From a virus (taxonomy: Duplodnaviria > Heunggongvirae > Uroviricota > Caudoviricetes), in IMG/VR virus record IMGVR_UViG_3300032330_001609, positions 133,975 through 197,974 of that record: a stretch of DNA of 64,000 nt; one strand, given 5' to 3'. The translations under genes were made by a program, and so were the position numbers. The stretch's first letter is position 1. Each line of letters opens with the position of its first letter. Below are positions 6,084 through 47,538 of this stretch, piece after piece. The notes under the pieces were generated by a model. That model was not told where the DNA came from. It ran no database searches and worked only from the letters and a program-made list of their open reading frames with translations.

Positions 6084-6096
6084 GTATATTTATTGG
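6084..6096 (+). promoter_or_regulatory. GATATTTAT-class motif
   Basis: gtatatttattgg immediately before the ATG at 6098. Confidence 0.4.
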
Positions 6097-6097
6097 T

Positions 6098-7462
6098 ATG
6101 AACAAACGAATACAACTTAACGAGAAACAATTGAAACAATATATCAAACGACTTACTGAGGAAGTTGAAGGTGAGTATTATAAAATAAGTCCGGAGGGAT
6201 ATATTGAGTTAATGAGATATGGTAGTTATCACGGTAAAGCGATAACTAAAATGAAGAAGTTTCAAGGTAAACCATTATGGATAACCGGGGACTTAAATCT
6301 TGATAGTACACCAACAGATAGTTTGGGTAATGTTGCTTATGTTGATGGGAACTTAAATATTTCAAGAACTAAAGTTTCTAGTATAGAAGGTACAAAAGTT
6401 AAGGGATATGTTTCTGATTATAATTCTCCTCGTGAGAGAATTAGAGAGAAACAAGAACTTAATGCTAAATTGGCGGGGCAAGAAGCACTCCGTGATAGTG
6501 AAGAATGGGCTTTAGAACAAGGTGATGAGACCGGAGAAAAGGCTCACGCGTTATTTGATAATTTAGTTAATGTTGGTGAGATTGAACCATTATCGGATGA
6601 TGATAAAGAAAAACTAATAATTCTACGTCGTAAACTTCAAGATTTAGAAAGAGAATATGAAGAACTTGATGATAATGATGATAGAGCTTATGAATTACAA
6701 GAAACTATAGATGAAACTCAATCGGAGATTGATGATTTAGAAGAGAACGATGTTGATGTTTATATGATGTACCCATCTCCAAGATATAGTCATTATGGGT
6801 TACAACAATTTGAGGTTTTAATACCAGGATTCAAAGATAGAGAATATACAGTTGGAACTGAAGAAGAAATGGATGCGGCGGCATTAGCTTATGCTAAAAA
6901 TTACATTGACGATGTTGGTGCTGATGGATTTAACGAATCATTTATTGAAGATTATTTGGATGTTGATGCGATTGTGAATATGGCTGAGGAAGATTATGAT
7001 TATCAAATTAGAGATTATCCGGAAAGTTACTTCAATGATGATGATTATGAATTGACAGATGAACAAGAAGAAAGAATAGAACAACTTGAATCACAAATTG
7101 CTGATTTGGAACAAGAACAATCAGAATTAGATACTGACCGAGAAGATTATGATGAGTTATATGAGGATTTCCAAAATCATATAGATGCTCTACAAGAAGA
7201 ATTGGATGGTATTGAAGTTGATACTGAACCAACTGAGGATATGATTGAGACTAAAGTTGCGGAACTTGTTAGAGATGTACGAAGAGACCCATTAGATTAT
7301 CTTAAAAACTATGGGTTAAGTATAAAAGAATATATTGATGAAGACGCTTTAGCTCAAGGGTTAGTTGATTCCGATGGTTGGGGTGTTATGAATGGTTATG
7401 ATGGTCAATACGATAGTGAAGAAGTTAATGGTATAACATATTATATTATGAGAGTTAACTAA
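6098..7462 (+). CDS. acidic coiled-coil protein
   Basis: 454 aa, very D/E-rich with heptad-like segments. A GTATATTTATTGG motif lies upstream. Confidence 0.7.
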   Translation: MNKRIQLNEKQLKQYIKRLTEEVEGEYYKISPEGYIELMRYGSYHGKAITKMKKFQGKPLWITGDLNLDSTPTDSLGNVAYVDGNLNISRTKVSSIEGTKVKGYVSDYNSPRERIREKQELNAKLAGQEALRDSEEWALEQGDETGEKAHALFDNLVNVGEIEPLSDDDKEKLIILRRKLQDLEREYEELDDNDDRAYELQETIDETQSEIDDLEENDVDVYMMYPSPRYSHYGLQQFEVLIPGFKDREYTVGTEEEMDAAALAYAKNYIDDVGADGFNESFIEDYLDVDAIVNMAEEDYDYQIRDYPESYFNDDDYELTDEQEERIEQLESQIADLEQEQSELDTDREDYDELYEDFQNHIDALQEELDGIEVDTEPTEDMIETKVAELVRDVRRDPLDYLKNYGLSIKEYIDEDALAQGLVDSDGWGVMNGYDGQYDSEEVNGITYYIMRVN

Positions 7463-8664: not shown

Positions 8665-9849
8665 ATGAAAGTAAAATTAGAGTACATTTGGTTGGACGGA
8701 TATAAACCGGAACCAAATTTGAGAAGTAAAATTAAAGTTGTTGACACATTACCAAAAGAGATTAGTGATATCCCTGAGTGGGGTTTTGATGGGAGTTCAA
8801 CTATGCAAGCCGAAGGATTCTCTTCAGATTGTTACCTTAAACCTGTTAGAATGTATCAAAAAGGTAATACCAATTTGGTTTATGTTTTATGTGAGGTATT
8901 GGATAAGTACAATAAACCACACGATACAAACGATAGAAGTGAATTAGGTAAAGAAGACAATGATTTTTGGATTGGGTTTGAACAAGAATACTTTATTCGT
9001 TCATCACACAACAAAGATGTTTTAGGGTTTGAAAGAGGTGGTACAGTTGACCCCCAAGGTAAATACTATTGTGGTGTTGGCGGACAAATTGTTGGTAGAG
9101 AGTTAAGTGACGAGCATTTGGATTATTGTCTTGACTTGGGTATAAATGTTGAGGGGACCAATGCTGAGGTGGCACTTGGACAATGGGAATACCAAATATT
9201 CACTAAAGGTAAATTAAAATCTGCCGATGATTTATGGATGTCAAGATACATCTTACATAAATTAGCGGAGAAAAGAGGTTACGCGATTGAACTTCATCCA
9301 AAACCAATTCAAATTGGTGAGTGGAATGGGTCAGGACTACATACAAACTTCTCAAGTAAAAAAATGAGAGAAGAAGGTGGAGAAACTTACTTCAAATCTA
9401 TCTTCAATGCTTTTGAAACTAGACAAAAACTTCACATTGAAAATTATGGTTCAGATAATCATTTAAGATTAACCGGTAAATTTGAGACACAATCAATTGA
9501 TAAATTTAGTTGGGGTGTATCAGATAGAGGAGCATCTATTAGAGTCCCTAAATCAGTTGGTGAAACTTGGAAAGGTTATCTTGAGGATAGAAGACCATCA
9601 TCAAATGCTAACCCTTATAAAGTTATTGGTGTTATCTATGACGCATTGATTTTCGCTGACCAATTGGAAACAACTATTCACGCAATGTATGGTGATGTGG
9701 ATACATCAAAATTAAGAGAACAATTCTCAGGAATTATGTCTGATGAAGAGTTACTAGGTGAATACAGAAATGATGATGATTATGAATTGACTCCTGAAAT
9801 GATGGAATCAAAAGCAAATGTACCAACAGAAGATATAACATCAAAATAA
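8665..9849 (+). CDS. glnA: glutamine synthetase, type II (eukaryote-like)
   Basis: IWLDG...EWGFDGSST.QAEG, YYCGVG, GTNAEV..QWEYQI, EWNGSGLHTNFS, RLTG, ASIRVP and DRRPSSN all match GSII signature blocks. Confidence 0.85.
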   Translation: MKVKLEYIWLDGYKPEPNLRSKIKVVDTLPKEISDIPEWGFDGSSTMQAEGFSSDCYLKPVRMYQKGNTNLVYVLCEVLDKYNKPHDTNDRSELGKEDNDFWIGFEQEYFIRSSHNKDVLGFERGGTVDPQGKYYCGVGGQIVGRELSDEHLDYCLDLGINVEGTNAEVALGQWEYQIFTKGKLKSADDLWMSRYILHKLAEKRGYAIELHPKPIQIGEWNGSGLHTNFSSKKMREEGGETYFKSIFNAFETRQKLHIENYGSDNHLRLTGKFETQSIDKFSWGVSDRGASIRVPKSVGETWKGYLEDRRPSSNANPYKVIGVIYDALIFADQLETTIHAMYGDVDTSKLREQFSGIMSDEELLGEYRNDDDYELTPEMMESKANVPTEDITSK

Positions 9850-11439: not shown

Positions 11440-11790
11440 ATGGCAAAAAGATTTATAATTTCAGAAGATGAAAAAAGAGATATCCGTTCAAGATATGGTT
11501 TATTAAATGAACAAACTCAATTGAGTGGTCAAGAAGTTTTTGAATTACAAACAGCACTTAATGATTACTTTAAGATGAAAAAAGTAATGGTTAATGGTAA
11601 AATATTCCAAATACCGGTAGATTCTCAATGGGGTCCAACAACGGTAAACGCTCTTAAAAAATTCCAAACTATGGAAAAAATTGATTCAGATGGAATACCG
11701 GGTGGAGATACTTACAATGCGTTACATAAATTAGGGTTAAACCAAGATATTATTGACAAAGCAATCAATTGGATAAGTAATTTATTTTAA
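11440..11790 (+). CDS. hypothetical protein (MAKRFIISEDEKR N-terminus)
   Basis: 116 aa ORF with GGATATTTATAATT upstream. Confidence 0.6.
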   Translation: MAKRFIISEDEKRDIRSRYGLLNEQTQLSGQEVFELQTALNDYFKMKKVMVNGKIFQIPVDSQWGPTTVNALKKFQTMEKIDSDGIPGGDTYNALHKLGLNQDIIDKAINWISNLF

Positions 11791-11791
11791 T

Positions 11792-12898
11792 ATGAAAAAA
11801 ACATTAACAGAGTCTGAATTAAAAGAAAGAATAATTCAAATTTATAAAGAAGAACAAGAAAAAATACTTCAAGAGAAATGGGACGTATTATCTAAAGAGG
11901 ATAAAATTTTTGTTGTTGAGTTCTTACGTTCGGCTTATCCTGAAAAATCAAAACTTCTTAAAGAGGCTAAATGGTATAATACATTGGGTGACCTTGTTGG
12001 TATTTTTGACCCAACAGGTATTGTTGATGTGGTTAATGGTATTAGTTATTGGAGACAAGGTGATAAGTTATTTGCTATTTTATCTTTAATATCGGCAGTT
12101 CCAATTATTGGTGACGCAATTGGTAAAACAGTAATAGGTGTAATGAAAACAGGTGGTGCAAGTACTAAAGCATTCAAAGCAGCTGCCGTTGCAGGTGATG
12201 CGGCTAAAATTGCGGAAACTGCTAAAGCAGCCGGAGGACCAATAGCTAAAATGGTTGAGACCGCACCATCTTGGGGAACTAAATTACTTAATATGTTAAA
12301 AGCGTTAATTGGTAGAGTTCCATTTTTAGGAAGAGGATTGGTTAAAGTTATTGAAGAGTATATTCAAATTTTCAAAGGTGCCGGTGCAAAAATGGGTACT
12401 CGTGCGGCTGAATTGGCAAAATTAGAAGGAAAAACATTATCGGCAGCAGAAAAATCTAAATTGATTAAACAAATTGAAAAAGACACTGCATTTAGAGGAT
12501 TTAGAGATAATAAAGGTTTGGCTAACGCATCATTTATGTCAAAAGTTCGTGGAGGTGTTCCAAGATTATTTGGTAACAGAGCAACACGTTCATTGATGGG
12601 TAGAACTAAATGGTATTTAAGATTATTAGACTTTTTAGGTGTTGCAAATTTTGTTGGTCCGGACGAGTTAATGCAAAAATATAGTGATTTAGAACAAAAA
12701 GTTAATGAATTTAATCAAACACCACAAGGTCAAAAATCTTGGGCTGATGATTTTGGTTCTGTTTTTAATCAACAAACACCTGCACCTGTTGCACCAACAA
12801 CACCTCCACCATCAGCACCAACAACAACAACGGGTGGTGACTTTATTGGGGATGCGTTAAAAGGTATGTTTGGTTCAGCACTTAAAGCGGCGATATAA
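11792..12898 (+). CDS. hypothetical protein, Gly/Ala-rich with Pro/Thr-rich C-terminus
   Basis: 368 aa ORF. Confidence 0.6.
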   Translation: MKKTLTESELKERIIQIYKEEQEKILQEKWDVLSKEDKIFVVEFLRSAYPEKSKLLKEAKWYNTLGDLVGIFDPTGIVDVVNGISYWRQGDKLFAILSLISAVPIIGDAIGKTVIGVMKTGGASTKAFKAAAVAGDAAKIAETAKAAGGPIAKMVETAPSWGTKLLNMLKALIGRVPFLGRGLVKVIEEYIQIFKGAGAKMGTRAAELAKLEGKTLSAAEKSKLIKQIEKDTAFRGFRDNKGLANASFMSKVRGGVPRLFGNRATRSLMGRTKWYLRLLDFLGVANFVGPDELMQKYSDLEQKVNEFNQTPQGQKSWADDFGSVFNQQTPAPVAPTTPPPSAPTTTTGGDFIGDALKGMFGSALKAAI

Positions 12899-12900
12899 TT

Positions 12901-14307
12901 ATGAAACAACTAATAAATGAAAGTGGTTTAAGAGATATTAAAGCCCTTGCAAAAAGATATCCTAAAGCTGAAATATATTTCCATCAAGATTTAGATGGTG
13001 TGACAACGGCAATTGCTATGAAAAAATACCTTGAGAACAATGGTATTAAAGTAGTTGACGCTCATATTATTCAATATGGAGATAAAGAGTTTGCGGTGAA
13101 GAAGAATGATGCTAAAGGTGATGTTATGCCGGTCTTAGTGGATTTTGCTCACGGTAAACCAATGTTTGTTATTCATACAGACCATCACGATAGACAAGCC
13201 GGTGCTGAAGATACTAAATCAACATCATTCAGACAGTCTCGTTCTAATGTTGAAACAATTTCTCAGGTAGTTTCACCTAAAGATTTATTTCCATCTTCGG
13301 ATATATTATTAATTTCAACGGTAGATTCAGCAAATTACGCATTTAATGAAATAAGTGTTGACCAAGTGATATCTTATTTATTCAAATTAGATAAAGACTC
13401 TTCATTACAAAAAAATAAAATGTTAATGGGATTAGTTGTTAACAAATTATTATTAGCCTTCAAAAACAAACCGGGATTCTTAGAACAATTGGTGATGGAA
13501 TGTAGTCCATCCTTATTGAATATACTTCATACAATTAAAAAAATTATGGTTCAAAAAGGTTTTGTAAAACCTGAAAGTCTTGAACAAAATAAAGATGAGT
13601 ATGTTAAATCAATGCAAGATAATCCTAATGTTAAAGTATTGGGTAACATCATAGTTCAATATGGTGGAGGTCCAATGTTTAAGCCAGGTTCTTATGACCG
13701 ATATACACCATTCAAAAATAATCCTGAAGCGGACTTCTTAGTTATTGCTTGGCCTTTGGGGTTAGTTCAAGCATCTTGTAATCCATTCAAAAAAGAAAGA
13801 GAACTAAAAGGTGTTAATTTAGGTGAGATAGCTCAAGAAGTTTTATCTAAGTGGGAAGACCAATTAAAACAACGTGAGTTACCACTTTCAACTATTAAAT
13901 GGGTATCGGAAACATCAAAAGATTTTAATACGGAATCAACAGGATTTACATTCAAAGATTTTGTTGCGTTATATGGTAAAGATTATAAATCAAAAGACCA
14001 CGGTAAGGAAGAATTATTACATATTGGTGAGATGATGGAGAAACCATTTTCAGAATTACCGGAAGAACATAGACAAATGTTGGATGATATTAATGTAAAT
14101 GTTTGGGATTTTATTCAGGCAAATAGTGGTGGGCACAAATGTATAACAAACATTTCAGGATTAAATTATCTTGGTAGAGGTAAAAGACCACCAAAAGGAA
14201 GTCATAGATATAATGAGGCGGATGATTCACCAACGGTTAAATTTACCAAAATGATTCAGAACGAGTTTGTGAAATTATTACAAGAAAAAATTAGTCAAGG
14301 TCACTAA
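12901..14307 (+). CDS. DHH-family phosphoesterase
   Basis: HQDLDGV (motif I), VDFAHGK (II), HTDHHD (III) and SGGHK (IV). Confidence 0.6.
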   Translation: MKQLINESGLRDIKALAKRYPKAEIYFHQDLDGVTTAIAMKKYLENNGIKVVDAHIIQYGDKEFAVKKNDAKGDVMPVLVDFAHGKPMFVIHTDHHDRQAGAEDTKSTSFRQSRSNVETISQVVSPKDLFPSSDILLISTVDSANYAFNEISVDQVISYLFKLDKDSSLQKNKMLMGLVVNKLLLAFKNKPGFLEQLVMECSPSLLNILHTIKKIMVQKGFVKPESLEQNKDEYVKSMQDNPNVKVLGNIIVQYGGGPMFKPGSYDRYTPFKNNPEADFLVIAWPLGLVQASCNPFKKERELKGVNLGEIAQEVLSKWEDQLKQRELPLSTIKWVSETSKDFNTESTGFTFKDFVALYGKDYKSKDHGKEELLHIGEMMEKPFSELPEEHRQMLDDINVNVWDFIQANSGGHKCITNISGLNYLGRGKRPPKGSHRYNEADDSPTVKFTKMIQNEFVKLLQEKISQGH

Positions 14308-15222: not shown

Positions 15223-15230
15223 TATCTTTG
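15223..15230 (+). promoter_or_regulatory. Bacteroidota-type -7 box
   Basis: tagtattatctttgtcggg, 22 nt before the ATG at 15253. Confidence 0.55.
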
Positions 15231-18870: not shown

Positions 18871-19197
18871 ATGAAACACGTTATACTTACAGAAAAACAA
18901 CTTGAAACATTAGTGTCACAAGTTAAAACTTTGAAGGAAGACCATAAAGAAGGTTCTTATATGGCTAAGCAACAGTTATTTATCATTGCGAAGATGGCTC
19001 AAGCTATGTGGGAAAAGATGGAAGATGATGGTGATGACCAATTAGAAGATTGGATGGAAAGTAAAATTGCTCAAGCGGAACAAAGTATTACGTCTGTGGT
19101 TAAAACTTTTATGTATGATGAATTCTCTAAAAAAGAAGAGGATGAAATTGGTGGAATGAATAAACTTGGTTATAGTGACCTAATAATTGGAAAATAA
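18871..19197 (+). CDS. hypothetical protein (MKHVILTEKQ N-terminus)
   Basis: The ORF 18838.. was trimmed to the Met at 18871; GATATTTATAAAT lies just upstream. Confidence 0.5.
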   Translation: MKHVILTEKQLETLVSQVKTLKEDHKEGSYMAKQQLFIIAKMAQAMWEKMEDDGDDQLEDWMESKIAQAEQSITSVVKTFMYDEFSKKEEDEIGGMNKLGYSDLIIGK

Positions 19198-19665: not shown

Positions 19666-20607
19666 ATGAAAAACTTAATTACTAAAATATTAAAAGAATC
19701 TATACCGGGACCCGAAGTTGAAAAACGTGCGTTAACTCGTAAAGAGGTTACGTTATTTAAGTACTTAAATAAACATAAACAGGAGGCTAAAACGCAGGGT
19801 GGTTTATTGAAAGTTATTAAAAGTATGATGGGGGTTCTTGGGTTGCCAGCATCTGAGGCAAAATTTTATTATGAAGTTTATACTGCAAACTATAGACCTG
19901 ATGGGGATTATGAAAATATAACACCTGAGGAGTTCAGAGATTATAGATTATTCAAGGCGAAAAAGACACCTAATAATACCGCATATGAATATAGTTCCGC
20001 TAAAATACCATTCAAAGGTTCCAATCTTGAGGGTGAGTGGAAGGTTAATAATAGTAACCAGTGGTATTATGTTATAGAATCTTATGGATGGTACCCAATA
20101 TTCTTATTTATTAACGACCAATGGTATAGAGTTATGGATTCATACTCATCATCTACTGCAAAACAAATGAGTGCGGCAAATCCGGTTCATTGGAATAGTG
20201 GGTTGAAAGCTAACGTTGTTGGTGTGACTAGAGGTGAAATGAGTAACTTAATTGGTGGTAGATATGATTTAGAAGGTATGAAATCGGCAAGAGTTCCAAA
20301 CTTTGTTAAGAATATGAAAACTCAATTAGTGAGTAGTAAAAAATTAATTAGTTCAGGATGGGGTGAAAATGCTGTTAGAGTTAGTTACACCATTGATGAT
20401 ATCAATGAAGCCGATGGTAAAATTAAAATTCTTGTGAGTATTAATAAAGCGGGAAGAATGGTTGATAGAAAAATGGTACCAAACCCTGAATATCAAAATG
20501 ATGAACGATTATTAAATGATATTGAAACAGCAATCAAACAAAATATTATCAGAACCAATCCGGAATATCTGTCGGATGACAATGTAGACATACAATTCAA
20601 ACACTAA
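19666..20607 (+). CDS. hypothetical protein (MKNLITKILKES N-terminus)
   Basis: 313 aa. Confidence 0.6.
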   Translation: MKNLITKILKESIPGPEVEKRALTRKEVTLFKYLNKHKQEAKTQGGLLKVIKSMMGVLGLPASEAKFYYEVYTANYRPDGDYENITPEEFRDYRLFKAKKTPNNTAYEYSSAKIPFKGSNLEGEWKVNNSNQWYYVIESYGWYPIFLFINDQWYRVMDSYSSSTAKQMSAANPVHWNSGLKANVVGVTRGEMSNLIGGRYDLEGMKSARVPNFVKNMKTQLVSSKKLISSGWGENAVRVSYTIDDINEADGKIKILVSINKAGRMVDRKMVPNPEYQNDERLLNDIETAIKQNIIRTNPEYLSDDNVDIQFKH

Positions 20608-20701: not shown

Positions 20702-21451
20702 ATGACAACTACCACTACCACTACCACTACCGTTTCAAGAGTTAGAAATTACGAAGGTTCTAACCAATTTTTATTAAACCTTAAATCATCTTTACAAAGA
20801 TGGGGGAGCTTAACACCTAAACAAATGGAATTCGCTGAGAAAGCACTTAAAAGTGTTCAAACCGTTAATGTTGAGACTATGTCTGAAGACTTACAAAAGA
20901 TTGCTAAGTACGACGGACCAAACAGTTTCGTTAACGAAATCAAAAGTAAATTGATAAAGTACGGAACTTTGTCTGACAAACAGGTTAACGCAACTCTTAA
21001 TCAAATCCAAAAAGATATTGATAAGGCAAACACTCACAAGATGAGAATCCCAACTCCGGGAGAGACTGTAACTGTAGGTCGTAAGATTGGACAACAATTG
21101 AAAGAAACTTACGGATTAGAATTCAACCCAATGATTATTGATATCACTAAGTTGTTAGCAGTTTCACCAAAGGCGATTAAGTTCTCAGGGAAGATGACAA
21201 CAGGAAGAAGTAAAGTTTGTAGATGTTGTGCTAAAACATTGACTGACGAGTTCTCAATGTTAACCGGAGTTGGAAAGACTTGTGCTACTCATATGAGAAT
21301 CCCTTACATCACTGATGTAACTCAAGCTGACAGATTCCGTGAGGATTACTTGAAAAGAGTAGAAGAAATTGGTGAAATGGAATTTTGGGTACCTAAGTCT
21401 CAGGTTAAAAAATGGGATGGTAAGACAGAAATCATCTTAAAAATGATATAA
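20702..21451 (+). CDS. hypothetical protein with poly-Thr N-terminus
   Basis: The ORF-track start at 20669 lies inside the promoter box, so the first ATG at 20702 (MTTTTTTTTTV) was used. Confidence 0.6.
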   Translation: MTTTTTTTTTVSRVRNYEGSNQFLLNLKSSLQRWGSLTPKQMEFAEKALKSVQTVNVETMSEDLQKIAKYDGPNSFVNEIKSKLIKYGTLSDKQVNATLNQIQKDIDKANTHKMRIPTPGETVTVGRKIGQQLKETYGLEFNPMIIDITKLLAVSPKAIKFSGKMTTGRSKVCRCCAKTLTDEFSMLTGVGKTCATHMRIPYITDVTQADRFREDYLKRVEEIGEMEFWVPKSQVKKWDGKTEIILKMI

Positions 21452-24641: not shown

Positions 24642-25163
24642 ATGAAAATAATCATTACCGAATCACGTTATAAAAACATTCTATTCAGATATTGGGATAA
24701 GTTTGGTGGTGACATCAATAAACAATTTATTCTTAATTTTGGGTTGGATAATAATAATGGTGATATTTCATATGAACAAGCCTACAAATATCTTATTGAA
24801 TGGAGAGGTATTGAAGAATCTAAAAACCTTGCAAATACACTATTACTTCAGAACCCACATCATATAGATGAATATGGTGGATACGATTTCTTTTTTGAGG
24901 TGACAGATATTAAAAAGTGGGGACTTGATGATGATGAACCATTTGTGACGGTTAAAACTAAAGTTGATGATTTAAGTGGTGAAGTTACTATAATAGATGG
25001 TAACACATATGAATTATCGGATGCCTTAGGTAATGATGAGTATGGATGGGAAGTTGAAGATGAGGTTAATTGGGGTATCAACGATTATTTCAAGGAAAAA
25101 ATAACATCAAAAACCGGGATTAAAGTAATATTCTTTAGACCTGACTTTACTAGCAAACAATAA
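24642..25163 (+). CDS. MKIIITE-family protein
   Basis: N-terminus MKIIITESRYKNILFRYWDKF. Confidence 0.6.
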   Translation: MKIIITESRYKNILFRYWDKFGGDINKQFILNFGLDNNNGDISYEQAYKYLIEWRGIEESKNLANTLLLQNPHHIDEYGGYDFFFEVTDIKKWGLDDDEPFVTVKTKVDDLSGEVTIIDGNTYELSDALGNDEYGWEVEDEVNWGINDYFKEKITSKTGIKVIFFRPDFTSKQ

Positions 25164-28670: not shown

Positions 28671-28684
28671 AGATATTTATAATT
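28671..28684 (+). promoter_or_regulatory. GATATTTAT-class motif
   Basis: agatatttataatt directly before the ATG at 28685. Confidence 0.45.
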
Positions 28685-29215
28685 ATGAAAATTAAGATTA
28701 CAGAATCACAATATAATAAATTATTTATTCGAGAGGAAGAAGAAGTTGATGATATTACACCTGACTTTAACAAAACGGTGTATAATCCTGAAGACAAATC
28801 AGTAGTTGGCGCTTATATGATTGTTGGTGAAACTGAAAAAATGATTGAAGTATTAAACATTCACGAACAATTAGATAATTCAGGATTGTTTATGGATGGT
28901 GCGGAATCATACAACATTTATATTTATTTTTCAAAGTTACCAAAATCTCAAATTGAAATACTTGGACCGGTTGAAGGTAAGGAAGGTTTTGTGTTTATTA
29001 AAATACCTTATTGGTTGTTTAAGAAAGATTCAAAAGCATTATCAATTAAAAGAAGTTTAGTTAAGAAAAGATTATCAATGTCAAGAGGTCAACTTTATGA
29101 TGATTTTCTTAAAAACATAAATAATCCTGATGTTGAAAAGTATTTTTTTGTAATTGATACTGATGATAGTAGTAGACAACGATTCAAATACTACCAAAGA
29201 CATTATAAAGGATAA
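28685..29215 (+). CDS. MKIIITE-family protein
   Basis: True start taken at MKIKITESQYNKLF (ORF-track start 28631); AGATATTTATAATT immediately upstream. Confidence 0.55.
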   Translation: MKIKITESQYNKLFIREEEEVDDITPDFNKTVYNPEDKSVVGAYMIVGETEKMIEVLNIHEQLDNSGLFMDGAESYNIYIYFSKLPKSQIEILGPVEGKEGFVFIKIPYWLFKKDSKALSIKRSLVKKRLSMSRGQLYDDFLKNINNPDVEKYFFVIDTDDSSRQRFKYYQRHYKG

Positions 29216-38059: not shown

Positions 38060-38437
38060 ATGGATATTAAAATTAGTGAAGATAAATTAGAAAAGATAAT
38101 CGATACCATAGTTAATGGAATTGGTGTTGATAAGTATGATTCTTTTCAATCAAGAATGGGTAGTAAGTTATCATATGTTGAATTTTTAACACCGGGAAAT
38201 AGACTTAATACAATTTCAAGATATTATCCTGAGATAAATTTAGTTGCGGTTAATGATGAAAAATTATATGATTTGATTAGTGTGTGGGTTGGGTCACCTA
38301 ATTTGTATAACACTATTAAAGATGAGGTTATCAAACGAATTTATAAAAAGTATACTGATAGATTTAGAAGGTATGTTGAAAACGGAAACATCCGGACAAT
38401 AAAATATATGAGTGACGAAGACTTCAATAAGAAGTAA
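38060..38437 (+). CDS. hypothetical protein (MDIKISEDKLEKI, family-like N-terminus)
   Basis: 125 aa; host-type TACCTTTG, a hairpin leader and TATATTTATAG all lie upstream. Confidence 0.5.
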   Translation: MDIKISEDKLEKIIDTIVNGIGVDKYDSFQSRMGSKLSYVEFLTPGNRLNTISRYYPEINLVAVNDEKLYDLISVWVGSPNLYNTIKDEVIKRIYKKYTDRFRRYVENGNIRTIKYMSDEDFNKK

Positions 38438-39876: not shown

Positions 39877-39906
39877 ATAACCCCCATTCAAAGTGGGGGT
39901 TTTTAA
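39877..39906 (+). terminator. rho-independent terminator
   Basis: aaccccca-ttcaaa-gtgggggtt followed by T5. Confidence 0.7.
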
Positions 39907-39910
39907 TTTA

Positions 39911-39926
39911 TAGGATATTTATAGTG
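39911..39926 (+). promoter_or_regulatory. GATATTTAT-class motif (head of the paralog operon)
   Basis: taggatatttatagtg before 39928. Confidence 0.5.
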
Positions 39927-39927
39927 T

Positions 39928-40326
39928 ATGAGAGAATTAATTAAGAGAATATTGAAGGAAGAGGTTGAGACCAAGACAAAGGTTTTAATCTATATTTACT
40001 TCTGTGACCATAAAGATGAGAACTTCAGAGAGTATGTGAATCGTTTTCAGAATATGGATATTAATTTTTGGGTTAAACCCGGGAAAGGACACCACAGAGG
40101 ATTCTCAATTCAATCTATATTAGACACAGATGATATGTCTGAAGCCAAACACATTTCAAGGGGGATTTTAAGAGAGTTTGATGATAATATACTAATTGTA
40201 TTATCAAAACAAAAAGTATCCAACATAGAACCTGTGGGTGAGAATAACGAAGAAGTATTTGTTAAACCGGGTAGAAAGTTTGATGAGTTGGTTGATAAAG
40301 GTAAAAAAGGTATTTATATATTATGA
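39928..40326 (+). CDS. MKDLIKKILREE-class small protein 1
   Basis: MRELIKRILKEEVETK; first gene of a nine-gene paralog operon with TAGGATATTTATAGTG upstream. Confidence 0.6.
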   Translation: MRELIKRILKEEVETKTKVLIYIYFCDHKDENFREYVNRFQNMDINFWVKPGKGHHRGFSIQSILDTDDMSEAKHISRGILREFDDNILIVLSKQKVSNIEPVGENNEEVFVKPGRKFDELVDKGKKGIYIL

Positions 40327-40664
40327 AAGATTTAATTAGACAAATATTGAGAGAAGAATCTCAATCCAAGTTTGAGGAATTTGCTCAAAAAAGATTTGAT
40401 GGAGCGTCAAAGATTACTGAGAACGCAAAAGAAAAGGGTGGTCCGGCAATGTTGACTTACCATCATTTTGTTGTGAAATTACCACACTATAAGAAAGCAG
40501 CTGAAGGTAAGTTTGACATCAACGAATCTAAAAAAGAATTCAAAGAACACCTTGATAAACTATGTGGTTTATCCAAGGATGTTGATATGGAACAGGTAGA
40601 GTTCCAAAAGTTAGTGGGACTGATTGAAGTTCTTGGTGAGTTGATAATTAAAAGTGGTAAATAA
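40323..40664 (+). CDS. MKDLIKKILREE-class small protein 2
   Basis: MKDLIRQILREESQSKF. Confidence 0.6.
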   Translation: MKDLIRQILREESQSKFEEFAQKRFDGASKITENAKEKGGPAMLTYHHFVVKLPHYKKAAEGKFDINESKKEFKEHLDKLCGLSKDVDMEQVEFQKLVGLIEVLGELIIKSGK

Positions 40665-41257
40665 TGAAAGATTTAATTAAAAAGATATTACGAGAAGAGG
40701 TTAGTAGAAAATTTACCAAAGGTAGTCCTAATTCTCAATCAGTGATTATTAAACATATGGAGAAAATTGTCTCTAAAACAACAAGAGTTCTTCCACCGCC
40801 TGAAGATAATTATGGAAATTATAGTGAAGAGTGGTGTAAAGGTGACAATATTGTTATGGAGGCGAAATATTTTTTTAATGATGAGGATAGTGATGAAGAA
40901 ATATTCTTTTCAGGTGATTTATGGATTAATGAGAAAGAAATTGACTTTTTATCTCAAATGTTACAAGTTAGAAAAACATTTATACTTAATGTAATTACCG
41001 AATGGTATGATGAGAAATACGCAACCAAGTTTGGACAAGAAACGGGTCATCCGGAATTTGAGATTGGTGAGACACTAACTTTTGACAATTGGCGTAAATG
41101 TTATCAGATGATTGACGTTGATAATATAAGTAGAGAAGAAATGATTGATTATTTAGTTAGGGAAACATTAAATGGAAGAAATCAGTTAGAATCATTACCT
41201 GATAATGAATTAAAAAGTAAATATAGAAGTGTTTATAATGCACGATTGAATAAATAA
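40664..41257 (+). CDS. MKDLIKKILREE-class small protein 3
   Basis: MKDLIKKILREEVSRKF. Confidence 0.6.
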   Translation: MKDLIKKILREEVSRKFTKGSPNSQSVIIKHMEKIVSKTTRVLPPPEDNYGNYSEEWCKGDNIVMEAKYFFNDEDSDEEIFFSGDLWINEKEIDFLSQMLQVRKTFILNVITEWYDEKYATKFGQETGHPEFEIGETLTFDNWRKCYQMIDVDNISREEMIDYLVRETLNGRNQLESLPDNELKSKYRSVYNARLNK

Positions 41258-41598
41258 TGAAAGTAGTAATAACAGAAAGTAAATTAGAACAAGTCGCCAT
41301 TAATTGGTTGAATGATAACTATAGTGATTTGGAGTTTATTGATTACGAAAAACGACCATCGTTACATATATATGTAAAAAATAAAAATGTAATTTTTGAT
41401 TATAATATAAAAACTAAAGAAATTTTTATTACTATTGATATTTGGAAATTATTAGGTGGTATTTTTAGTATGGGTTATCAACAAATATTTGAAATATTAA
41501 AAAAATGGGTTGAGAATTATTACAACATAAAAGTTAAATTAATTAAACCGGCAGAGAACAAAAGATGGAAAGTCCTAACCTCTGAATATTCACAATAA
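41257..41598 (+). CDS. MKIIITE-family protein
   Basis: MKVVITESKLEQVAINWLNDNY; full-length similarity to 52036..52395(-). Confidence 0.65.
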   Translation: MKVVITESKLEQVAINWLNDNYSDLEFIDYEKRPSLHIYVKNKNVIFDYNIKTKEIFITIDIWKLLGGIFSMGYQQIFEILKKWVENYYNIKVKLIKPAENKRWKVLTSEYSQ

Positions 41599-41599
41599 T

Positions 41600-41929
41600 A
41601 TGAAAGTAGTAATAACAGAAAGTAGAAGGGACAAGTTAGCCAAACAAGAATTGGATAAAGAGTTCTCCAATATGTATGAAGATGTTAATTATGTGACTGA
41701 TTCTATGGGAGAAAAAAAAACAATAAGTTATCGTAATGGTGATGGTGTTATTATGATGTATGGTGAAGGTGCGGATGTTTTATATATTTGCGATGATGTA
41801 ATAAAACCAATTATATTTTTTGGTTATACACCACATCAGGTTAAAATGTTGGTTAAAGAATGGTTCTCTGAAAAATTTGGGTTACCGGTTGGTATAATTC
41901 ACCATACAGTTAAAGGATTATTAAACTAA
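41600..41929 (+). CDS. MKIIITE-family protein
   Basis: MKVVITESRRDKLAKQEL; C-terminus ...KEWFSEKFGLPV. Confidence 0.65.
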   Translation: MKVVITESRRDKLAKQELDKEFSNMYEDVNYVTDSMGEKKTISYRNGDGVIMMYGEGADVLYICDDVIKPIIFFGYTPHQVKMLVKEWFSEKFGLPVGIIHHTVKGLLN

Positions 41930-42237
41930 TGAAATTATTAATCACCGAAGATAAACGAATTAGATTAATTCAAAATTATATTATGTCTACCTTCCCGGAG
42001 GTTGATAGTGTTGATATTAGTGATAAAAAAGTTTTATTGAGTCAAGATAGTCCAAAAAATGAACAAGGTGAAATTATTACCGTAACACTTATAACACTTA
42101 ATTTCAAAAGTGGTAAGATGCAGATTAGTCCAACAACAACATCAAGAAAAATAATGAAACAAGTTGATTCTATTTTTGGGCTTGATTTAGCAGATTATGG
42201 TTCCAAATGGGATTTTACGTATAAAATGGTAAACTAA
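41929..42237 (+). CDS. MKIIITE-family protein
   Basis: MKLLITEDKRIRLIQNYI. Confidence 0.6.
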   Translation: MKLLITEDKRIRLIQNYIMSTFPEVDSVDISDKKVLLSQDSPKNEQGEIITVTLITLNFKSGKMQISPTTTSRKIMKQVDSIFGLDLADYGSKWDFTYKMVN

Positions 42238-42617
42238 TGAAAATAATAATATCAGAAAATAGAGTTAATCAAGTTATCCGTAAGTATTTGGATGAAACGT
42301 TCTACCCTGATTATGGGTGGGCAAATCCTGATGTTTATCAAAAAGATGTTAAACAATATGGTGACCTTGTATTTTTCATTAATGACCAAGATTCTTACGT
42401 TTATTATGGTTGTAATGCTAATGGTGGTCCGGAAGATGAATTCTTTGCGCCTTATGGACATCTACATAATCATAAATGTCCTTTATTGTCAATATATCCA
42501 AGAATTAGTGAGAAATTAACTTCATTATTTGGTGATAAATGGAAATCAGTATTCAAAGAATGGTTTGAAGAAAATACAGGATTAGAGGTTGTTCAAATAA
42601 CGGATGATTATATATAA
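42237..42617 (+). CDS. MKIIITE-family protein
   Basis: MKIIISENRVNQVIRKYL; C-terminus ...FKEWFEENTGLEV. Confidence 0.65.
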   Translation: MKIIISENRVNQVIRKYLDETFYPDYGWANPDVYQKDVKQYGDLVFFINDQDSYVYYGCNANGGPEDEFFAPYGHLHNHKCPLLSIYPRISEKLTSLFGDKWKSVFKEWFEENTGLEVVQITDDYI

Positions 42618-42619
42618 CA

Positions 42620-42994
42620 ATGAAGATATTAATAACAGAAAATAGACAACGACAATTAGCCTACAAGATGTTAGACGATAAGTTAAGTGAATTAACACGT
42701 AAAGACATTGACTTAAATAAAGAATCCGTGTTAAGTAATTGGCAGGTATTGTTTATTGATAAAGATGGTAACATTGAGATGAGATATAATGAAAAGAATG
42801 GAACATTATATGTTTCATCTCGTTTTGTTATTCCTTTAAGATTACTCTCATTTGATGTGGAGGAATTAAATAGGTTGGTCACTTGGTGGTTTACTGATAG
42901 AATTCGTTTAGAACCTGAAGATATGTACATTGTTTCACCCGGGTCATTAGATTGGGAAAATATGGGACTTGAAGGTTTAATGGATGAGTTTTAG
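42620..42994 (+). CDS. MKIIITE-family protein
   Basis: MKILITENRQRQLAYKML; C-terminus ...WWFTDRIRLEP. Confidence 0.65.
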   Translation: MKILITENRQRQLAYKMLDDKLSELTRKDIDLNKESVLSNWQVLFIDKDGNIEMRYNEKNGTLYVSSRFVIPLRLLSFDVEELNRLVTWWFTDRIRLEPEDMYIVSPGSLDWENMGLEGLMDEF

Positions 42995-42997
42995 AAT

Positions 42998-43025
42998 AAC
43001 GCCCGTAATAACGGGCATTTTTTAT
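42998..43025 (+). terminator. rho-independent terminator ending the paralog operon
   Basis: gcccgtaataacgggc followed by T8. Confidence 0.7.
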
Positions 43026-44373: not shown

Positions 44374-44940
44374 ATGAACTTAAACGAAGAACTATCAAAA
44401 ATGAAATCGATTATGGGTATCAATGAGAATAAACAATCATATCCATACTCTTGTGTAATGTTATACTTTAATCCGGATGCGATTACAGAACTACACAACA
44501 AAATAAACCCTGAGGACTTATACGTGGAAGAAGATGGATTCGGTTTGGAACCGGAATCACACTGTACTCTATTGTATGGATTACACGACAATGAGGTAAC
44601 ACCGGAACAAATAGAACAAATATTGGGTAACAAAACCTTCACAACTTGTAAAGCTCACAACCTATCTTGTTTCAACAATCCAAAGTATGATGTGTTAAAG
44701 TATGATATAATGGGGGACAATCTAAATGAAACAAATGAGGAGTTAAAACAATTCCCATTCACAAGTGATTACCCTGACTATCATCCACATATGACAATCG
44801 CATATCTTAAACCGGGCAAAGGTAAAGAATATATTGATATGTTGGGTAATGACCACAAAGAAATGTGGATGGCTCCACAACACGCTGTTTATTCAAGAAC
44901 AAATGGTGAAAAATTAAAAATTCCTGTAAGAATTGACTAA
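44374..44940 (+). CDS. 2H phosphoesterase (LigT / 2'-5' RNA ligase-like)
   Basis: Two H-x-T-x motifs (HCTLLY and HMTIAY). The N-terminal leader MNLNEELSKMKSIMG is shared with 46878, 50075 and 50507. Confidence 0.6.
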   Translation: MNLNEELSKMKSIMGINENKQSYPYSCVMLYFNPDAITELHNKINPEDLYVEEDGFGLEPESHCTLLYGLHDNEVTPEQIEQILGNKTFTTCKAHNLSCFNNPKYDVLKYDIMGDNLNETNEELKQFPFTSDYPDYHPHMTIAYLKPGKGKEYIDMLGNDHKEMWMAPQHAVYSRTNGEKLKIPVRID

Positions 44941-46861: not shown

Positions 46862-46874
46862 TGATATATTTATT
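46862..46874 (+). promoter_or_regulatory. GATATTTAT-class motif
   Basis: gatatatttattg before 46878. Confidence 0.45.
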
Positions 46875-46877
46875 GTT

Positions 46878-47273
46878 ATGAACTTACACGAAAACATAGA
46901 TAGAATCAAGTCAATAATGGATGAAGGTAAAGACGCTTACGTCTCAAGAGCTTCTTATGACCAAGAGTATGAAGAGGAATATCCAAAGTGGCAAAAAATT
47001 ATGATTAAGTTTTTAAGTATGGAGATAAATGCTTATAGTGAAAATGATGATGTAATAGTATTGTATAATGAGAAAAATGGTGACAAATATTTGATGAGGT
47101 ACAATAAAAAGAACGAACATCTGTGGTGGGATTATTCATTACAGGATATGTTAATGAAATTAGTACCCTATGGTTATATATCAAGACATTTTAAGTATGC
47201 GATTCAGGACTTCTTCAAAAAACATTTTCCTGACTATGGTGTTAGAGATATAACAGGTGCAAATATAGGATAA
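46878..47273 (+). CDS. MNLxENIxRI-class protein
   Basis: MNLHENIDRIKSIMDEGKD; GATATATTTATTG upstream. Confidence 0.55.
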   Translation: MNLHENIDRIKSIMDEGKDAYVSRASYDQEYEEEYPKWQKIMIKFLSMEINAYSENDDVIVLYNEKNGDKYLMRYNKKNEHLWWDYSLQDMLMKLVPYGYISRHFKYAIQDFFKKHFPDYGVRDITGANIG

Positions 47274-47274
47274 T

Positions 47275-47538
47275 ATGGAAACACAAAATTATGACAACAG
47301 ACAATTTATTATATTCAATGTATCAGAACTACCAAACATTGATTTTACTCAGGTATTAGAAACATCTATTGATACGGTTAGAAAATCCGTTGATGATACT
47401 AAAACATTTGTTAAATGGGATGGTGATATGCCGGAGTGTGTTTCAACTTTAACAACACAAGAAGGTCCTTATACCTATGAGGAAATATTAACCATTTTAT
47501 CTACTTCTGATTGGAATAAACCAATTGATGAATTATAA
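47275..47538 (+). CDS. hypothetical protein
   Basis: 87 aa. Confidence 0.45.
   Translation: METQNYDNRQFIIFNVSELPNIDFTQVLETSIDTVRKSVDDTKTFVKWDGDMPECVSTLTTQEGPYTYEEILTILSTSDWNKPIDEL

Follow-up and report, generated by a model that had tools for sequence, protein, structure and literature searches.

The window and its phage

The window, meaning the whole 64,000-nucleotide (nt) stretch of the virus record IMGVR_UViG_3300032330_001609 analysed here, encodes a series of mostly small proteins that open with the same short leader. This leader, called leader A below, the protein bodies that follow it and two further leaders are the subject of this report. The window has a guanine plus cytosine (GC) content of 31% and 114 genes were counted. 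It is identical to positions ~256,172-320,171 of the 332,109-bp metagenomic scaffold ENA ERZ28594640 (KRAE22-1_SAMEA4981865_METAG-scaffold_1). About 85 kb of the 332 kb of this parent genome were readable (the window and its flanks), and statements about the whole genome are limited to that part.

The genome is that of an uncultured jumbo phage. This assignment is based on the tight gene packing with ATGA overlaps, on the hairpin and T-run terminators found throughout and on the gene content, which includes an Acb1-like phosphoesterase directed against CBASS (cyclic oligonucleotide-based antiphage signalling system), an N6/N4 methylase, the head domain of a CCA/poly(A) polymerase, a lysin-type Amidase_2 and a tail Collar domain. 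Near relatives are found on contigs of 115-464 kb. The host is most likely a member of Bacteroidota, because sigma-A-like -7 boxes precede 13 genes and several proteins carry Bacteroidota-style lipoprotein signals.

An operon of eight genes with leader A or leader B

Three leaders recur in the window: leader A, MK-h-h-I-x-E; leader B, MK[DE]LI[KR]x[IV]L[KR]E[ES]; and leader C, MNL[QH]ENIxRI[KH]x[ML]M(G)-h-h-x-E (h, hydrophobic; x, any residue). The operon at 39928-42994 (+ strand) contains the first two. It follows a terminator-like hairpin that ends the upstream unit (39879-39901, +; a 10-pair stem with 5 GC pairs, then a T-run), its first ATG is preceded at 5 nt by the promoter-like element GATATTTAT (39914-39922, +), and a second terminator-like hairpin closes it (43001-43016, +). 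An earlier note on this DNA had described a nine-member operon with such boundaries and promoter; the boundaries and the element stand, but there are eight genes, with leader A on the last five only and leader B on the first three (39928, 40323 and 40664).

Gene 1 (39928-40326, +, 132 amino acids (aa)) starts with MRELIKRILKEEV, and relatives of its body were detected among its own orthologues only. Gene 2 (40323-40664, +, 113 aa) starts with MKDLIRQILREES. In gene 3 (40664-41257, +, 197 aa) leader B precedes a weak body of the W-F type defined below (residues ~48-123; E 7e-6 with a body-only hidden Markov model (HMM)). Leader A is joined to a W-F domain in gene 4 (41257-41598, +, 113 aa, MKVVITESK), gene 5 (41600-41929, +, 109 aa, MKVVITESR), gene 7 (42237-42617, +, 126 aa, MKIIISENR), where the domain carries an insertion (body-only HMM E 1e-11), and gene 8 (42620-42994, +, 124 aa, MKILITENR). 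Gene 6 (41929-42237, +, 102 aa, MKLLITEDK) also starts with leader A, but once this is removed its body is not detectably W-F.

These proteins had been proposed to form a hypervariable arms-race arsenal. They are variable between paralogues only. In related phages the orthologues are 49-92% identical, and the ratio of nonsynonymous to synonymous substitution rates (dN/dS) is 0.07-0.56 in ten pairs of orthologues of operon genes. For 41600, conservation extends over the full length of 125 orthologues. Each paralogue is of old origin and has been kept, the orthologues are under purifying selection, and the proposal of an arms-race arsenal is not supported by these data. Single cargo proteins may still have an anti-defence role.

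Leader A is a real and recurrent peptide

The strict form M-K-h-h-I-[TS]-E-[SDN]-[KRQ] opens 13 ORFs (open reading frames) of the window: 24642, 28685, 41257, 41600, 41929, 42237, 42620, 52020(-), 52395(-), 58004, 61608, 63192 and 63779. The consensus is M-K-(I/Y/L/V/F)-(I/L/V)-I-(T/S/K)-E, and an N-capped helix comes next. Outside the operon, three of these ORFs encode a W-F body: 51718-52020 (-, 100 aa, MKLIITEDK; weak, body-only HMM E 5e-6), 52036-52395 (-, 119 aa) and 61608-61913 (+, 101 aa). The others are 58004-58324 (+, 106 aa, MKFIISENK, body not detectably W-F), 24642-25163 (+, MKIIITESRY, unrelated 173-aa body), 28685-29215 (+, MKIKITESQY, unrelated 176-aa body), 63192-63782 (+, 196 aa, MKLIITERQ, with a DUF5872 domain) and 63779-64000 (+, MKIIITESQY), a gene that is cut by the window end and encodes 123 aa in the parent contig.

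Variant forms are found on four or five further ORFs. They are MDIKISEDK (38060-38437, +, 125 aa), MKHVILTEKQ, which is one residue longer (18871-19197, +), MAKRFIISEDEK ahead of a PG_binding_1 domain at residues 29-95 (11440-11790, +), MKKTLTESE on a Gly/Ala-rich 368-aa protein (11792-12898, +) and MKQLINESG (12901). Of the at least 15 carriers listed in the earlier note, the 13 strict ones and the weaker copies at 38060, 18871 and 11440 are real; the coordinate 51718 given there marks the end, not the start, of 52020(-). The region 11440-14307 holds three successive leader-A-like genes. The first two encode the PG_binding_1 protein and the Gly/Ala-rich protein, which has hydrophobic stretches; the product of the third (MKQLINESG) is 468 aa long and matches DHH weakly. 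By analogy, and speculatively, this trio recalls ejection-protein modules.

The reading frame mostly extends less than 10 codons upstream of the leader Met, which is nearly always the first possible start, and it is therefore taken as the true start. Synonymous codons vary within the leader (ATA/ATT/ATC, ACA/ACC/ACT, TCA/AGT) and third positions are free; selection therefore acts on the peptide and not on the DNA. A DNA-level cause was ruled out by these varying synonymous sites together with the operon-internal copies, and a signal peptide was ruled out on inspection, the leader being too short and too charged. The number of leaders A expected by chance among 114 genes is far below one (a hand estimate from residue frequencies). 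A full-text literature search for the leader strings returned only noise.

The W-F domain is a family separate from the leader

The carriers of leader A had been regarded as one diversified multigene family. A full-length local jackhmmer search joins 14 window ORFs as one family, but only a core set still groups after removal of the first 12 residues. Membership was refined with a body-only W-F profile built from 130 diverse relatives. With this profile the W-F body is found behind leader A (41257, 41600, 42237, 42620, 52395(-), 52020(-) and 61608), behind leader C (MNLHENIDRIKSIMDE; 46878-47273, +, 131 aa), behind leader B (40664) and without any leader, in 61318-61587 (+, 89 aa, MDKKKNLIFKYF; E 5e-12), in 56954-57301 (+, 115 aa, a weak W-F-type body; E 6e-6) and possibly in 3911. 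At this sensitivity six ORFs (41929, 58004, 24642, 28685, 63192 and 63779) have leader A alone in common and no detectable W-F body. By sequence comparison the supposed single family thus has to be divided into a portable tag on the one hand and, on the other, a new domain that lacks annotation. The relationship of 41257 and 52395(-) was correctly described as homology from end to end (36% identity, phmmer E 3e-14), and the C-terminal h-W-F-x4-G-h-V blocks are present as previously quoted.

When 1.84 billion cluster representatives were searched with a W-F profile, 713 relatives had E <= 1e-3 and 64 of them E <= 1e-10. Nearly all are ~100 aa long and aligned from residue 1, in a list biased to leader-bearing members since this profile included the leader. 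One protein of 1990 aa with 14 'stretches' (P0267) was dropped as an unrelated repeat protein. Natural fusions of two or three W-F domains are also found (P0159, P0161, P0178, P0198, P0204, P0209, P0224, P0254, P0278 and P0294). AlphaFold models were obtained for 41600 (predicted local distance difference test (pLDDT) 86.4, predicted template modelling score (pTM) 0.77) and 41257 (pLDDT 91.7, pTM 0.83). The predicted fold opens with a helix and a four-stranded meander; two more helices follow, with the invariant Trp on the second, and a strand ends it. As the earlier note had stated, no known domain is recognized in the W-F body, which gave no match in Pfam, among functional PHROGs or to PDB sequences or folds; the only fold matches, in BFVD, are three uncharacterised 'uncultured Caudovirales phage' proteins.

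The leader is separable from the bodies that follow it

Within 130 family members sharing a mean identity of 17%, the near-invariant columns are M1, K2, I5 (129/130), E7 (126/130) and W84, of which M1 and K2 are partly selected, the set being restricted to proteins starting with MK or MR. Position 6 is more tolerant and is K, R or V in 36% of the orthologues of 41600. In the models the leader lies outside the core: residues 1-8 of 41600 and 1-6 of 41257 are predicted as lower-confidence coil, with pLDDT below 50 at residues 1-4 of 41600, and the helix is predicted to start at residues 7-9. In tandem W-F proteins (P0161, P0178, P0198, P0204 and P0254) the internal repeats retain helix 1, but their leader is lost or degraded; such fusions are useful for telling which parts the fold needs. 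In P0266 leader C is joined straight onto IITESRL.

The leader is also found on other bodies, and in many other aquatic phages. IMG/VR was scanned for DNA encoding MKYIITE, which gave at least 120 sites on contigs of 5-321 kb. The matches listed include 132 complete ORFs, 79 with W-F bodies and 53 with other bodies, and the 91 unique proteins that they encode form at least 16 body clusters, among them 57-aa zinc-ribbon proteins and proteins of 200-280 aa with hydrophobic segments. Within the window, leader A precedes W-F bodies, a DUF5872 domain and at least five further non-W-F bodies. The DUF5872 protein, 63192, is a true member of PF19197 (64.6 bits against a gathering cut-off of 27.5, E 1.6e-17), but this accounts only for its body and not for its leader. 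DUF5872 homologues have a common core, L[TN]EGENKPTNP, which follows MKxIITERQ..., MNLQEDIQRIKEIMGLNE or a leader plus an extra domain of ~100 aa, and this core occurs with leader A or with leader C (P0392). Every DUF5872 homologue (63192-63782 and P0298-P0417) shows a second (L/I)-[TN]-E|G junction directly before GENKPTNP, whichever leader it has.

Since it is the most conserved part of these proteins, lies outside the predicted core, is dropped from internal repeats and occurs on at least 16 unrelated bodies, the leader is, as far as sequences and models indicate, a separable tag and not a part of the fold. In being separable it agrees with the targeting peptide suggested in the earlier note.

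Leaders B and C share a Glu-ended core with leader A

The window and three related loci together contain 54 ORFs with leader A, B or C, and roughly a fifth of the window genes carry one of the three. Leader B (MKDLIKKILREE) is found at 39928, 40323, 40664 and 19666 (19666-20607, +, 313 aa, MKNLITKILKES) in the window and in two related loci (L002 10332-11673; L005 8147 and 9006), in all on at least four unrelated bodies. It also stands ahead of the three W-F domains of P0254. Leader C is found at 44374, 46878, 50075 and 50507, weakly at 57395, and in the same two related loci (L002 13637-17517; L005 11857-16100). It is often followed by an acidic linker, and its bodies are enzymes and small proteins, including a P-loop protein (GTSSAGKS) and the Acb1-like 2H phosphoesterase (44374-44940, +, MNLNEELSKMKSIMGINE). 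At 50075-50968 (+) it opens two neighbouring paralogues (MNLIENIERINTLISE and MNLQENIHRIQSLLTE).

In all three leaders the final residues are h-h-x-Glu, and the next residue is polar. This Glu occupies position 7, 11, or 16/19. Endings of leader C, for example MMGIIKESK, reproduce the leader A core. A strict h-h-x-E motif occurs within the first 25 residues in 14 of the 114 window genes and in 0-2 of 114 in later 20-residue bins. The leaders are exchangeable, the W-F body being found behind A, behind B (40664, P0254), behind C (46878, P0234, P0266) or behind none (61318). As the core is also found 13-15 residues inside the start, effects of a free Met-Lys, such as initiation context or a ClpX N-motif-2 degron, are unlikely.

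Promoter-like elements

The element ATATTTAT is overall modestly over-represented in the window (37 copies against about 23 in shuffles), but its placement is far from random: 13 copies lie exactly 4-5 nt before an ATG and 10 more 13-21 nt before one. Of the 13 at close spacing, nine stand ahead of leader genes, and the distance is 4 nt at 28685, 38060, 52395(-), 58004 and 61608. Other copies precede 6098 (an acidic coiled coil), the 46878-47538 operon (Laminin_G_3, PHROG 'virion structural protein') and a gene for a tail Collar-domain protein in the flank. The element is often placed right after a CCCCC...GGGGG terminator hairpin; examples lie at 6086-6093, 28673-28680, 46866-46873, 57992-57999 and 63180-63187. 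Since a spacing of 4-5 nt leaves almost no 5' untranslated region, the transcripts may be leaderless or nearly leaderless messenger RNAs (mRNAs). Reverse-complemented, the strand-specific core TATTTATA gives the T4 late promoter TATAAATA. ATATTTAT is probably phage-specific and of a late class. Among the IMG/VR matches listed, 44 of the 132 leader genes have a TATTTAT-type element within 25 nt upstream.

A second element, TATCTTTG[TC], lies 3-38 nt before 13 gene starts, with boxes at 15223, 16502, 17952, 20673, 29742, 31564, 43472(-), 44969, 56761, 58380, 60939 and 61956. The Bacteroidota sigma-A -7 box has the consensus TAnnTTTG, which this putative promoter element fits. Boxes of this type precede other genes than ATATTTAT does, those for membrane proteins, the CCA/poly(A) polymerase, SPFH, DUF6011 and a ClpP-like protein, which suggests a class read by the host RNA polymerase (early).

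Two further genes of the window may be mentioned here. The ORF at 20702-21451, in which DUF6011 is present, opens with ten threonines in a run (MTTTTTTTTTTVS), and the phage encodes a glutamine synthetase (8665-9849) with Gln-synt_N and Gln-synt_C domains (E 1e-21).

A proposed capsid tag of the T4 type as the best reading

The best reading of the leader, which we hold tentatively and at rather less than an even chance, is by analogy that of a capsid-targeting and cleavage tag like those of T4 Alt and the T4 internal proteins (IPs). The leader would be a portable N-terminal address and processing tag outside the protein fold. Its three exposed hydrophobic residues would dock the new protein on the assembling prohead core, and a prohead protease cutting after Glu in (L/I)-x-E (of the T4 gp21 or giant-phage S80 type) would then remove the 7, 11 or 16-19 residues of the leader. 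The small proteins, once mature, would remain in the capsid until they pass with the DNA into the Bacteroidota host, as T4 Alt and the internal proteins do. Expression from the phage-specific ATATTTAT, shared with virion-like genes, would fit a late supply at the time of assembly.

The closest precedent is T4 Alt, whose translation starts MELITELFDE and which the T4 annotation describes as a capsid protein that reaches the host together with the DNA. The gp21 protease takes off 'the known six residues' of Alt, MELITE, at 'ITE-6' and cuts again at 'LTE-619' (PMC5694885). The resemblance of the I-T-E ending to a prohead protease site, pointed out in the earlier note, thus has an exact counterpart, and leader A, read as h-I-[TS]-E|[SN], matches this proven processing site nearly residue for residue. 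Since Alt loses six residues, a leader of seven is not too short. The conservation pattern of leader A is that of the gp21 recognition motif (L/I)-x-E, with I5 and E7 nearly fixed and position 6 variable. In the T4 record X04567.1, IPII and IPIII are annotated as precursors that lose residues -10 to -1, and both read MKTYQEFIAE|A. The prohead proteases of T4, phiKZ, 201phi2-1 and SPN3US all cut after Glu (PMC5694885, PMC10052503), and in SPN3US Val is preferred at P4 and Ser at P1', with propeptides of down to 20-24 residues (PMC10052503).

Ten leader-bearing IMG/VR loci encode a sheath protein like T4 gp18 (E ~1e-30), so that by sequence some of the tag-bearing phages are distant T4-type myoviruses, in which a Glu-specific prohead protease is therefore plausible. 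These loci (L026, L029, L040, L050, L084, L089, L092, L100, L105 and L122) are smaller AT-rich phage contigs with a sheath of ~1056 aa, and one or two leader-type genes (MKYIITESRLH..., MIYIIKESF...) lie between their sheath and tube genes.

Several observations weigh against a capsid tag. Neither the ~85 kb of the 332-kb genome nor 1.24 Mb of related loci, which are short, showed a gene for a gp21/S80-type protease, a portal or a capsid protein. By tblastn, T4 gp20, gp21, gp22, gp23 and gp24 matched nothing in the window, the flanks or 120 related loci, sheath and tube being the only T4 proteins for which matches were obtained. A single protease was encountered, a ClpP-like one (PF00574; PHROG 'head maturation protease', E 9e-30). 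Its gene lies among non-structural genes on the - strand (L006 18008-18742), ~15 kb downstream of the window on the same contig, in a small operon that starts with a host-type TAnnTTTG box and is not beside head genes. Among 50,697 phage records no cultured relative was identified, either with 24 kb of DNA as a megablast query or with three proteins by tblastn, and these records accordingly supply no virion proteome. The sequence I-[TS]-E-[SN]-[KR]-L also has the features of a classic helix start, with a hydrophobic staple, an N-cap and an acidic N1, so that part of the leader conservation could be structural and need no protease, and (L/I)-x-E motifs are easily found in the K/E/I/L-rich proteins of a genome with this GC content. 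A leader on roughly a fifth of the genes would imply an unusually large capsid cargo, and some leader-A proteins have membrane-like hydrophobic segments.

A weak PHROG 'head maturation protease' match in 6098-7462 was rejected as evidence of a protease, since it falls in an acidic coiled coil and was read as compositional or scaffold-like. This protein of 454 aa is very acidic, has ATATTTAT 4 nt upstream and shows two L-x-E motifs at its start (MNKRIQLNEKQL...RLTEEV). Its sequence is that of a protein which may be a scaffolding protein.

Alternative explanations

The main rival, which we consider somewhat unlikely, is that the leader is a permanent, uncleaved interaction element made of a short exposed beta-strand (K-h-I-I) and a helix cap (T-E-S-K-L), which would extend the sheet of a partner or second subunit and serve oligomers or one non-capsid hub. 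The residues Y, I, I and T form strands strongly, and the three hydrophobic residues exposed in the monomer model need a partner. A T or S at position 6 as N-cap, E7 at N1 and a staple between I5 and L10 would suit the predicted helix start at residue 7, and the motif also works away from the N-terminus (P0266, leader C endings). The near invariance of I5 and E7, however, goes far beyond what capping or a staple would need and exceeds the conservation of the fold core, the internal repeats fold without a leader, and the K, R or V that many orthologues of 41600 have at position 6 are poor N-caps. A docking strand also leaves unexplained both the Glu-ended motif of three leader types and the match to T4 Alt.

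The leader could also be a sorting or turnover signal unrelated to the capsid, either a degron for ClpXP or a phage ClpP-like protease, or a tag for another phage-made compartment, which we regard as improbable. The consensus of ClpX N-motif 2, attributed to Flynn and colleagues (2003), is reportedly Met-basic-hydrophobic x3, and M-K-h-h-h fits the start of this motif. The ClpP-family gene 15 kb downstream would supply a protease. ClpX N-motif classes do exist (PMC12723719). On the other hand, the core h-h-x-E-[SN]-[KR] recurs 13-15 residues inside leader C proteins and in P0266, so that a free Met-Lys is not required, and the invariant Glu is outside the ClpX motif. As for a compartment, no chimallin-type or other compartment gene was seen, no systematic search having been made.

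Slightly more improbable still is the absence of any tag, all carriers descending from one ancestral small protein with bodies that diverged beyond recognition, possibly under arms-race selection. The full-length search that unites 14 window ORFs, and the similar size (about 100 aa) of several non-W-F bodies, agree with such a descent. It does not account for a leader on DUF5872, on a PG_binding_1 protein, on zinc-ribbon 57-mers and on proteins of 200-280 aa, nor for the same bodies with other leaders or without one, and the dN/dS values and the good conservation of the 41600 orthologues throughout their length also argue against it.

Finally, it is very improbable that the first codons serve expression, as an AT-rich 'ramp' or an initiation context for mRNAs starting near the ATG after ATATTTAT: in 9 leader genes only 4-5 nt do separate this element from the ATG, leaving almost no untranslated region, and AAA is common as the second codon, but synonymous sites vary freely, promoterless operon-internal genes (41257-42620, 63779 and 52020-) bear the same leader, one upstream element goes with three different leaders, and the motif recurs at a distance from the start codon.

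Possible significance

Taken further, the capsid-tag reading leads to a broader proposal, which is possible but doubtful. A clade of uncultured aquatic phages, including Bacteroidota jumbo phages of more than 300 kb, would use at least three interchangeable address tags (A, MKxIITE; B, MKDLIKKILREE; C, MNLQENIxRIKxMMG-hhxE) to route the products of about a fifth of the window genes to the capsid or to another phage-built compartment, a generalised combinatorial sorting code. The cargo would comprise dozens of families, including the Acb1-like anti-CBASS enzyme and the peptidoglycan-binding protein.

If the leader is a loading tag, the T4 way of loading injected proteins would be widespread in uncultured aquatic phages and enormously scaled up. 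It would provide a sequence rule predicting which 'hypothetical' small proteins of jumbo phages reach the host at infection, for first-wave takeover and anti-defence, and a natural 7-residue tag for packing foreign proteins in phage heads. Even if it is a docking strand, a new large unannotated protein family and a directly testable portable motif have been defined.

Comparison with known systems

In bacterial microcompartments and encapsulins, a short portable peptide with a linker (encapsulation or cargo peptide) sends unrelated enzymes to one shell. The layout is the same where leader C and an acidic linker precede an enzyme, the Acb1-like protein for instance. However, these peptides belong to other organisms and shells, they are amphipathic helices that are not cleaved, and they have no homology with the leaders.

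The propeptides of giant-phage head proteins (substrates of the S80 proteases phiKZ gp175 and SPN3US gp245, cut after Glu) resemble the leaders in that they come from jumbo phages and have a Glu-ended motif with a hydrophobic P4. Ser or Asn is common at P1' in the leaders described here, Ser being the residue preferred in SPN3US, and propeptides of 20-24 residues approach the length of leader C. They differ in their motifs, A-x-E or S/A/G-x-E rather than I-x-E, and are not a shared portable sequence.

T4 Alt shares with leader A an N-terminal peptide of 6-7 residues ending in h-I-T-E, in which P4 and P3 are hydrophobic and P1 is Glu. Alt is, however, a single enzyme of 682 aa, whereas the leader is found on dozens of proteins, mostly of ~100 aa, in at least 16 families. 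Position 2 is Glu in Alt and Lys in leader A, which has one extra hydrophobic residue, and cleavage and packaging are proven for Alt only.

The T4 internal proteins IPI, IPII and IPIII have a leader of 10 residues instead of 7, and they are three proteins, whereas about a fifth of the window genes carry a leader of one of three classes. The conservation of the bodies between related phages is a further difference from them. No homology of leader A to their capsid-targeting sequence (CTS), MKTYQEFIAE, was found, only MK and h-I-x-E being common; by sequence, leader A appears closer to the MELITE of Alt than to the CTS, yet it is too short to establish homology. The arrangement is nevertheless similar: in both cases a short leader that starts with MK and ends in h-I-x-E is common to dissimilar small proteins, and in T4 this leader is removed after it has targeted them to the prohead core.

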